From positions 525,519 through 589,518 of the IMG/VR virus record IMGVR_UViG_3300037067_007156: 64,000 nt of DNA; one strand, 5' to 3'. The translations under genes and the position numbers were made by a program. Within the stretch, counting starts at the first letter, position 1, and every line of letters starts with the position of its first letter. Below the pieces are notes generated by a model that saw nothing but the letters and a program-made list of their open reading frames with translations, had not been told where the DNA came from and made no database searches. The DNA is from a virus (taxonomy: Duplodnaviria; Heunggongvirae; Uroviricota; Caudoviricetes). Below are positions 976-1,155 of this stretch, one piece after another.

Positions 976-1092
976 ATGTTAAATAGTTTTAGTCATATTA
1001 GTTCGATAGTTTCCTCAGTGAAACGCCATAAATGGTTTATTAGCCATAATGGGACTGGACTGTATATGTCTAAAAATATTCTTGGTTGCTGA
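976..1092 (+). CDS. putative attenuator leader peptide 1 (38 aa, MLNSFSHISSIVSSVKRHKWFISHNGTGLYMSKNILGC)
   Basis: Translated by hand; A-rich upstream region; codons 4-24 all correspond to downstream tRNAs; 3' half can pair with the terminator 5' arm. Confidence 0.75.
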   Translation: MLNSFSHISSIVSSVKRHKWFISHNGTGLYMSKNILGC

Positions 1093-1120
1093 ATGAAGTA
1101 AAAAAAAGAATATAAGATAT

Positions 1121-1155
1121 AAAAAAGTCCAGACGAAAGTTTGGACTTTTTTTTT
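1121..1155 (+). terminator. intrinsic terminator (attenuator) before tRNA cluster 1
   Basis: AAAAAAGTCCAGAC-GAAA-GTTTGGACTTTTTTTTT. Confidence 0.85.

Follow-up and report, generated by a model that had tools for sequence, protein, structure and literature searches.

Probable leader-peptide attenuators ahead of the tRNA gene clusters of a huge phage

Introduction

Among described leader-peptide attenuators, the Escherichia coli trpL leader is the four-segment archetype (pairings 1:2, 2:3 and 3:4), with its regulatory codons in or beside segment 1, and the enterobacterial multivalent attenuators thrL and ilvL carry Thr and Ile codons and Ile, Val and Leu codons, respectively, in their leaders. 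The E. coli pheST attenuator, with the pheM leader, senses a single amino acid and targets a cellular gene for an aminoacyl-tRNA synthetase. T-boxes, by comparison, are ribosome-free and bind uncharged tRNA directly via one specifier codon and the conserved T-box sequence. Here we describe a unit at positions 976–1155 (plus strand) of a 64,000-nucleotide stretch of a Caudoviricetes virus genome (the window; bases 525,519–589,518 of the 639,979-bp IMG/VR record IMGVR_UViG_3300037067_007156), which lies ahead of a cluster of tRNA genes and, judged on its sequence, is probably a ribosome-mediated leader-peptide transcription attenuator gating those tRNAs. Its leader (leader 1) is one of three of the same build in this phage, each ahead of its own tRNA cluster; positions are those of the window unless given as genome coordinates.

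Like thrL and ilvL, the phage leaders have a short leader open reading frame (ORF) dense in regulatory codons for more than one amino acid, an antiterminator and a terminator that exclude each other and have one strand in common, and a stop codon ahead of the terminator. They differ from thrL and ilvL in that they would regulate tRNA genes and a few small ORFs rather than biosynthetic enzymes, in that they cover 6–10 codon boxes with about one entry per downstream tRNA species rather than runs for one or two amino acids, and in that they belong to a phage system whose three copies divide the genetic code. Leader 1 resembles trpL in its predicted four-segment layout and codon placement, in its predicted full-length fold (1:2 plus 3:4) and in that 2:3 would be available once segment 1 is occupied; it differs in having its stop codon 35 nt past the start of segment 2, in the antiterminator loop, and no tandem identical codons, and a terminating ribosome would block 2:3 sterically, not cover segment 2. 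The likeness to pheM is that of leader-peptide attenuation of a gene of the translation apparatus rather than of a biosynthetic operon. T-boxes also tie the state of tRNA to translation-related genes via the choice between antiterminator and terminator, whereas leader 1 has a frame-specific match over ~20 codons and no T-box match.

A further comparison is offered by the attenuator in the upstream ORF (uORF) of whiB7 in mycobacteria, which is reported to be activated by inhibition, through knock-down, of tRNA and synthetase genes, with stalling proposed to cause antitermination and uORF composition setting what is sensed (PMC10274678). The whiB7 uORF differs from the phage leaders in that it controls a transcription factor and is enriched in alanine, unmatched to a downstream tRNA set (PMC10274678). 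On sequence, the phage unit has the parts that define the attenuator family, namely an upstream ORF on the same strand, a block of cognate codons, a terminator, and a predicted exclusive antiterminator within reach of the ribosome. It falls outside the classical scope of that family, biosynthesis or synthetase genes, as the genes downstream are tRNA genes.

Phage tRNA genes are usually viewed as passive supplements to codon usage, and one current view is that they stand in for host tRNAs lost to host shut-off or anticodon nucleases; to our knowledge, how phages control their tRNA genes is largely unknown. No description of leader-peptide attenuation of tRNA genes was found in the literature searched, subscription journals and bioRxiv supplements being outside its scope. 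If the reading given here is true, these would be the first tRNA genes under leader-peptide attenuation and the first attenuator reading up to ten tRNA species, an extension of attenuation beyond amino-acid supply to that of tRNAs, with panels of six to ten sensed in place of one or two amino acids.

The leader 1 codon block

All 27 tRNA genes that ARAGORN finds genome-wide lie inside three clusters; Rfam and a lowered ARAGORN threshold add Phe-GAA (cluster 1), Asn-GTT (cluster 3) and a few odd tRNA-like genes, and the three clusters jointly serve 20/20 amino acids. Cluster 1 (1181–7238, plus strand; ARAGORN and Rfam), with interspersed plus-strand ORFs, contains Ser-TGA, Trp, Ile-GAT, Val-TAC, two His-GTG, Phe-GAA, Lys-CTT, Lys-TTT, Ile-TAT, Arg-ACG and Ser-GCT. 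Its Phe-GAA gene (2333–2406) was missed by ARAGORN at default settings, scores 44.4 bits with Rfam and was recovered at the lowered threshold.

Leader ORF 1 (976–1092, plus strand; 38 codons and TGA) reads MLNSFSHISSIVSSVKRHKWFISHNGTGLYMSKNILGC, and its codons 4–24 (985–1047) form a putative sensor block of 21 consecutive codons served by cluster 1. These codons match exactly the list given in an earlier, sequence-only reading of this DNA, and the claim made there that every one encodes an amino acid of the cluster 1 tRNAs is borne out (21/21), Phe being included once Phe-GAA is recovered. The same reading had noted that the ATA, CGC and AGY codons are read only by distal tRNAs; this holds for Ile-TAT, Arg-ACG and Ser-GCT (6304–7238), both here and in the relative G001 described below. 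The block contains all 10 codon boxes that cluster 1 serves.

The specificity of the block was assessed by a run scan, in which the 61 sense codons were put into three classes according to the cluster reading them (Arg CGN and AGR codons being classed separately) and all six frames of the whole genome were searched. The leader 1 block is the longest uninterrupted class-1 run (21 codons) across the six frames of 639,979 bp, the runner-up being a low-complexity F/I run of 20 codons. Up to the antiterminator core, the short strand within the ORF that complements the terminator 5′ arm, 21/25 leader 1 codons are served by cluster 1, 1/25 by cluster 2 and 3/25 by cluster 3; past the core, the match to its own cluster falls to 4/12.

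Three leaders for three tRNA clusters

Each of the three clusters is headed by the same series of elements: promoter-like motif, short ORF, antiterminator strand and intrinsic terminator. Leader ORF 2 (window 36199–36330, plus strand), which reads MMRFTTYTTATTAPQQGAGQGRTAQPRGSQAECILYGNISPNI, lies directly ahead of cluster 2 (window 36539–39956, plus strand; Gly, Ala, Gln, Pro, Thr and Arg-TCT; ARAGORN and Rfam), and its block of 21 codons served by that cluster (Gly, Ala, Gln, Pro, Thr and Arg-TCT) spans 36220–36282 on the plus strand. It is followed, on the same strand, by the antiterminator core GCTGAGTG (36289–36296), which complements CACTCAGC at 36365–36372, and by the intrinsic terminator (36355–36396; −28.6 kcal/mol, z −7.7). 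Leader ORF 3 (genome 395139–395053, minus strand), which reads MQLCNLNMDNYLNLEDDSSLGRVCLYIS, lies directly ahead of cluster 3 (genome 384315–394983, minus strand; Leu, Asp, Asn, Met, Glu, Cys and Tyr; ARAGORN and Rfam), where tRNA-Asn is detected by Rfam only.

In the run scan, the leader 2 block is the second longest class-2 run in the genome, the longest being a Q/T/A repeat within a protein, and the 15 codons of the leader 3 block are the longest class-3 run. Before the core, the codons served by clusters 1, 2 and 3 number 3/29, 25/29 and 2/29 in leader 2 and 3/19, 1/19 and 16/19 in leader 3, and past the core the own match is 3/13 and 3/8, respectively. The leaders contain 10/10, 6/6 and 8/8 of the codon boxes served by their own clusters 1, 2 and 3. 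Arg codons are sorted in the same way, with CGC in leader 1 (Arg-ACG) and AGG and AGA in leader 2 (Arg-TCT). Just past each block lies a perfect core/arm complement of 7–8 nt, CTGGACT/AGTCCAG in leader 1, GCTGAGTG/CACTCAGC in leader 2 and GGCAGGGT/ACCCTGCC in leader 3.

Folding of the leader 1 RNA

The leader 1 RNA, all of it on the plus strand, can be divided by folding into the segments of a classical attenuator. Segment 1 (987–1005), the predicted anti-antiterminator, pairs with 1054–1075 in the full-length minimum-energy fold. Segment 2 (1055–1083; pairing stretches 1055–1061, 1065–1071 and 1076–1083) is the 5′ strand of the antiterminator and lies inside the ORF; segment 3 (1106–1132) is its 3′ strand, of which 1121–1132 doubles as the terminator 5′ arm. 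The leader stop codon (1090–1092) is located between the two, in the apical part of the antiterminator hairpin. The intrinsic terminator (1121–1155; terminator search and folding) has a 14-bp stem, a GAAA loop and a T run, and its hairpin (1121–1152, with the 5′ arm at 1121–1134) folds at −17.4 kcal/mol (z −5.9).

The three-part antiterminator proposed in the sequence-only reading (1055–1061 with 1126–1132, 1065–1071 with 1115–1121 and 1076–1083 with 1106–1113) is the minimum-energy fold of 1051–1133, at −25.9 kcal/mol (z −8.5, 0/200 shuffles), and CTGGACT is the best Watson-Crick complement of the leader 1 terminator arm, AGTCCAG (shuffle P 0.016). Folding of 950–1160, suggested there as a check, gives −53.3 kcal/mol (z −5.6) and combines the 987–1005:1054–1075 pairing, a local hairpin at 1076–1113 and the terminator, which as modelled is the classical 1:2 plus 3:4 state.

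The only gathering-level Rfam matches are tRNAs. A cmscan of 1–8000 at E up to 1 gave no match to the T-box (which we take to be Rfam RF00230). Matches to MicC, BSnc120 and Thr_leader at 1052–1162 are sub-threshold, cover the terminator and were rejected as family members: MicC scores 27.8 against 90 bits, and Thr_leader (RF00506) scores 23 bits against a gathering threshold of 55 (E 0.77) and covers only 1103–1155, the terminator part.

Promoter-like sequences

Upstream of leader 1, the promoter-like motif GGAAAAAA-N16-AATATATA is located at 913–944 (plus strand), and its leader 2 counterpart, found by motif scan, at window 36142–36173 (plus strand). Of the five matches to the motif in the 640-kb genome, three belong to the tRNA leaders and one precedes a capsid-like gene; the motif is kept in relatives. 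Because there are only five copies, one of them before the capsid-like gene, it is probably a phage promoter, and its distribution suggests that the tRNA leaders use a stage-specific phage promoter. The copy at the capsid-like gene (genome 626948, plus strand, outside the window) has a perfect internal palindrome. A TAcaTTTG box at 894–901 (plus strand; pattern match), which also occurs upstream of leader 3 and of relatives' leaders, is a possible host-type −7 promoter element, presumably of the Bacteroidota type.

The distance from the T run to the first tRNA gene is 26 nt at leader 1 (tRNA-Ser-TGA) and ~12 nt at leader 3, leaving no space for a promoter in either gap, and a 149-nt spacer is found at leader 2. 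A sigma-70-type promoter between the leader 1 terminator and tRNA-Ser is ruled out by the 26-nt spacing. A consensus promoter scan gave 45 sites, no more than the 54 expected from shuffles.

The spacer from the leader 2 terminator to tRNA-Gly holds two copies of TATAACCNNACAGGNCTATA (36415–36434 and 36444–36463) followed by GTTCTTTGACATG (36469–36481), all kept in the relatives G001 and G002. GTTCTTTGA is found past several further tRNA genes as well (sites 1611 and 1976, and genome 394900 and 394638 on the minus strand). A role as a second promoter, as an operator or in processing is possible for these sequences.

Leaders and tRNA content in relatives

Relatives were collected by a tail sheath search of IMG/VR, in which the best 80 of 81 related stretches represent 77 distinct loci, and by the motif scan described below. 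In all, 24 leader/cluster pairs were compared, drawn from this phage (G000) and from relatives as distant as ~50% tail-sheath identity. The upstream 186-aa ORF as query found no relatives, and megablast of 1–8000 against the phage collection gave no match. All three leaders occur in G001, a 675-kb relative with 93% sheath identity, and leader 2 occurs in G002.

The block of leader 1 in G001 shows only two changes, both synonymous (AGT to AGC and TCG to TCA). At codon 3, Asn is replaced by Lys, which is in the served set. The stretch from core to terminator is full of substitutions and indels. In leader 3, seven block positions differ between the two phages and every codon stays in class 3; as the sequences stand, the peptide is free and the codon class is kept. 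In G001 cluster 1 (L104), ~865 nt without a tRNA separate the leader 1 terminator from tRNA-Trp, where this phage has tRNA-Ser-TGA directly; the G001 leader 1 retains TCA codons, and Ser-GGA lies further downstream.

Leaders of the same build precede tRNA clusters in four fragments at ~50% sheath identity (G005, G012, G019 and G021), and their composition shifts with the cluster. In G005, G012 and G019, tRNA-Val is part of a Pro/Ala/Thr/Gly/Arg cluster and Val codons appear in the leader (MKNIRTNTATVATTTTAPVGGRPVR...); in G021, the cluster has His, Leu, Met and Gln and the leader has His, Leu and Met codons (MTTVRLHMAHLQPTQLPQGGRGTGLGT...); and at a further locus, L120, a Met/Gln/Ile/Glu leader stands ahead of Met, Gln, Ile-TAT and Glu. 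A scan of IMG/VR for the promoter-like motif gave 128 loci (107 distinct sites), of which 16 have a tRNA within 900 nt, and 16/16 of these carry a short ORF and a terminator. Examples are MNFRIEYMIQEQMQQIK... ahead of Met, Gln, Gln, Met, Ile-TAT, Glu and Glu, MRNVSKHSKSFKSFWSH... ahead of Lys, Ser, Trp, Phe and His, and MKTMCNYMNIYDDQMK... ahead of Ile, Asp, Asn, Cys, Gln and Met. Among the 91 sites with no tRNA nearby, 83 lack a terminator over the first 330 nt; for at least six of the other eight, the locus ends ~330–450 nt past the motif and leader-like ORFs are present.

In all 24 leaders, the ORF lies upstream of the tRNAs on the same strand with an ATG-to-stop frame. Across the 24 pairs, the fraction of pre-core codons served is 0.685 for the leader's own cluster and 0.277 for other clusters (0/100,000 permutations), and reading of the ORF frame gives a served fraction of 0.70, compared with 0.25 and 0.26 for the two remaining frames (Wilcoxon P ~3e-5), P values that overstate independence because the compared pairs are phylogenetically related; low served fractions are those of cut contigs such as L158 and L108. 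When these two partial clusters are left out, 138 of the 140 boxes served by a cluster have at least one codon in its leader (22 pairs; odds ratio 225); a further 86 boxes occur in leaders with no tRNA detected for them, and 280 occur in neither leader nor cluster.

The RNA elements recur together with the codon match. Terminators were found in 24/24 leaders, and in 23/24 an automatic search located, within the ORF, 6–9 nt able to form Watson-Crick pairs with the terminator 5′ arm (per-leader shuffle P 0 to 0.08), the exception being L108, where the routine chose the wrong hairpin. The arm match averages 7.5 nt with a leader's own arm against 4.7 nt with the arms of other leaders. Such alignment-free tests were used because MAFFT alignments of the antiterminator-to-terminator segments were out of structural register, with cores and arms displaced by 1–4 columns. 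There are 19 distinct core strings among the leaders, and core and arm change together between relatives, as an antiterminator of the kind put forward in the sequence-only reading demands; between L126 and L158, an A to G change in the core is compensated by a T to C change, and both terminator arms carry matching changes. In 23/23 leaders the stop codon lies between core and arm, 7–43 nt past the core and 19–47 nt before the arm. A long antiterminator (−15 to −28 kcal/mol) was obtained in 11/11 leaders folded, and the full-length minimum-energy folds of these 11 contain the terminator in all cases and pairing of the core with the block region in most.

Proposed mechanism

The comparative and statistical evidence supports the central proposal of the sequence-only reading, that a leader-peptide sensor is coupled to an antiterminator competing for the terminator 5′ arm. 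In such a scheme, a ribosome slowed in the block by a scarce or uncharged tRNA would occupy segment 1 or the stretch between it and segment 2, and segment 2 would be free to pair with nascent segment 3, blocking the terminator and allowing transcription of the operon. A fast ribosome would reach the stop codon, having passed segment 2, and sit between segments 2 and 3, leading to 3:4 pairing and termination; with no translation, 1:2 pairing would let the terminator form. The ribosome would act as a wedge, placed between segments 1 and 2 if stalled and between 2 and 3 if terminating. The predicted result is a tRNA supply under negative feedback for each cluster separately, each being opened by its own codon 'checklist'. 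Candidate triggers are host tRNA loss in infection, a mismatch between phage and host codon usage, and autoregulation by the phage tRNAs.

For this clade of huge, probably Bacteroidota phages, we lean towards a modular tRNA-supply homeostat, in which a shortage of any listed tRNA opens just its cluster; the shortage could follow host tRNA degradation or cleavage by defence nucleases. If this is true, the phage gauges decoding speed codon by codon and makes tRNAs on demand, giving a readout of tRNA depletion in infection and bearing on the replacement of host tRNAs by phage tRNAs. It would also supply an annotation rule, a short ORF and terminator before a tRNA cluster with composition equal to cluster content, and the leaders would be usable as small sensors that can be programmed for particular tRNA pools.

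Every gene between 976 and 7238 lies on the plus strand, and the one long transcript over cluster 1 suggested in the sequence-only reading is plausible, though supported only indirectly. When transcripts ending before the terminator 3′ arm are folded, the core stays paired (P ~0.9–1.0) with a ribosome footprint at any position in the block, and a footprint near the core abolishes core pairing.

Several observations weigh against this scheme. At equilibrium, the terminator wins in full-length leaders wherever a 30-nt ribosome mask is placed, so that the states are not discriminated, and in truncated leader 1 transcripts, where 2:3 outcompetes 1:2, the antiterminator forms without a ribosome too (P 0.99), as well as with a ribosome at the stop codon. 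The branch from no translation to termination is therefore based on folding order only. A ribosome at the leader 1 stop codon leaves the core, 35 nt upstream, uncovered, and direct masking of the core by a stop-codon ribosome applies to only ~8/23 leaders, the remainder relying on the steric argument. Because equilibrium folds favour the terminator and the antiterminator forms ribosome-free, we infer that the switch decision must be kinetic and steric, as in classical attenuators.

The sensor itself has similar weaknesses. Under strict wobble, 19/21 block codons are read by cluster 1, because GTT and TCC need four-way U34 reading. Several tRNAs (Trp, Arg-CGC and Ile-ATA) have one codon each in the leader 1 block, and with such single entries the sensor may respond only weakly when one tRNA species is lost. 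Both His-GTG tRNAs of cluster 1 are structurally odd, with unusual long arms. Amino-acid starvation would not be relieved by extra tRNA and is indistinguishable to the device from tRNA shortage. Nor need all tRNAs depend on their leader: a terminator-like hairpin with a T run is found at 6269–6299, after a 227-aa ORF (5562–6245) and 5 nt before tRNA-Ile-TAT, promoter-like AATATATA boxes lie inside cluster 1 at 2580 and 6488, and the conserved GTTCTTTGACATG stretch past the leader 2 terminator could give leader-independent expression. The hairpin may act as a partial terminator or, within the operon, as an element for processing or stability, and together with the two boxes it could uncouple parts of cluster 1 from the leader.

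Alternative explanations

The RNA hardware might instead read general translation capacity or infection stage, with any ribosome slowing opening the operon and the codon match reflecting decoding by phage tRNAs generally. The representation of several tRNA species by one codon only would fit such a device, as would the promoter-like motif common to the capsid-like gene, suggesting a stage-specific promoter. It is nonetheless unlikely, as the three leaders partition the amino acids like the clusters (21/25, 25/29 and 16/19 on the diagonal against 1–3 codons off it), Arg CGN and AGR codons are sorted to the Arg-ACG and Arg-TCT clusters, and in relatives the composition of a leader tracks the content of its cluster; a partition of this kind is not what general decoding by phage tRNAs would give. 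A translation-independent RNA element, such as a protein-dependent or tRNA-binding antiterminator to which the reading frame is incidental, would account for the strong structure (z −5.6 for 950–1160 and −8.5 for the antiterminator) and for the fact that equilibrium folding with ribosome masks alone predicts no switching. That the ATG-to-stop frame is kept in 24/24 leaders with its stop between core and arm, that the codon match is frame-specific (0.70 against 0.25 and 0.26), that the block changes between the leader 1 copies of G000 and G001 are synonymous, and that no T-box or other Rfam family matches, beyond sub-threshold terminator-like hits, make it quite improbable.

Short ORFs are frequent in AT-rich DNA, and terminator-to-first-tRNA gaps of 120–870 nt exist in some clusters, so that leader ORF 1 could be conceived as a plain small protein-coding gene that carries a terminator of its own, the tRNAs being transcribed separately and the codon match owed to chance or base composition. 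This explanation is scarcely credible, since chance and base composition are excluded by the run scan, the permutation test and the frame control, the codon class is conserved and the peptide sequence is not, the 26 nt from the T run to tRNA-Ser leave no room for a promoter, and an in-ORF complement of the terminator arm recurs with different sequences. Ribosome-mediated attenuation by the leader peptide is the reading retained here.

Other features of the genome and the tRNA clusters

The record has direct terminal repeats at its ends and a GC content of ~23–33%, and the window encodes both a tail sheath gene and a sigma-factor-like gene (60909–62396). An alternative genetic code seems unlikely: table 11 gives dense ORFs, a search for suppressor tRNAs was negative, and the leaders stop at TGA, TAG and TAA.

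The genes downstream of leader 1 are tRNAs, an HNH endonuclease gene and small ORFs without assigned function; most ORFs within cluster 1 received no function from PHROGs or Pfam, and no sign of tRNA-repair enzymes was seen in the operon. The HNH gene (2608–3459; phrog_10822, E 4e-41), preceded by the AATATATA box at 2580, is likely a mobile homing endonuclease. Of the two odd His-GTG genes, the one at 1861–1950 is 90 nt long, has D and anticodon stems of 6 bp and an additional, inserted arm that its 77-nt G001 ortholog lacks, and obtains only a weak, tRNA-Sec-like Rfam match (27.9 bits). The tRNA-like gene at 2231–2316 has a long extra arm and the anticodon GTG (His), and obtains no tRNA score from Rfam; its G001 ortholog has GGA (Ser) with the remaining body alignable, and by this comparison it appears to be an anticodon switch on a Ser-type scaffold. 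The ~280 nt between these two genes (1951–2230), which hold no convincing ORF and no Rfam match, contain a TTGACA-17-TAAAAT promoter-like site at 1981–2009.

Abnormal anticodon loops occur in tRNA genes at window 37894–37969, at L107 4314–4387 and in one gene of L136, which ARAGORN reports as '???', giving anticodons of two or four letters (aa, ttcc, cttg); Rfam scores the window copy at 49.7 bits, and these genes may be frameshift-type or degenerate tRNAs. Embedded among the cluster 2 tRNAs are a thioredoxin gene (37994–38317, E 2e-29) and a homolog of the PorP/SprF type IX secretion membrane protein (38415–39389, E 1.4e-58), the latter hinting at a Bacteroidota host.

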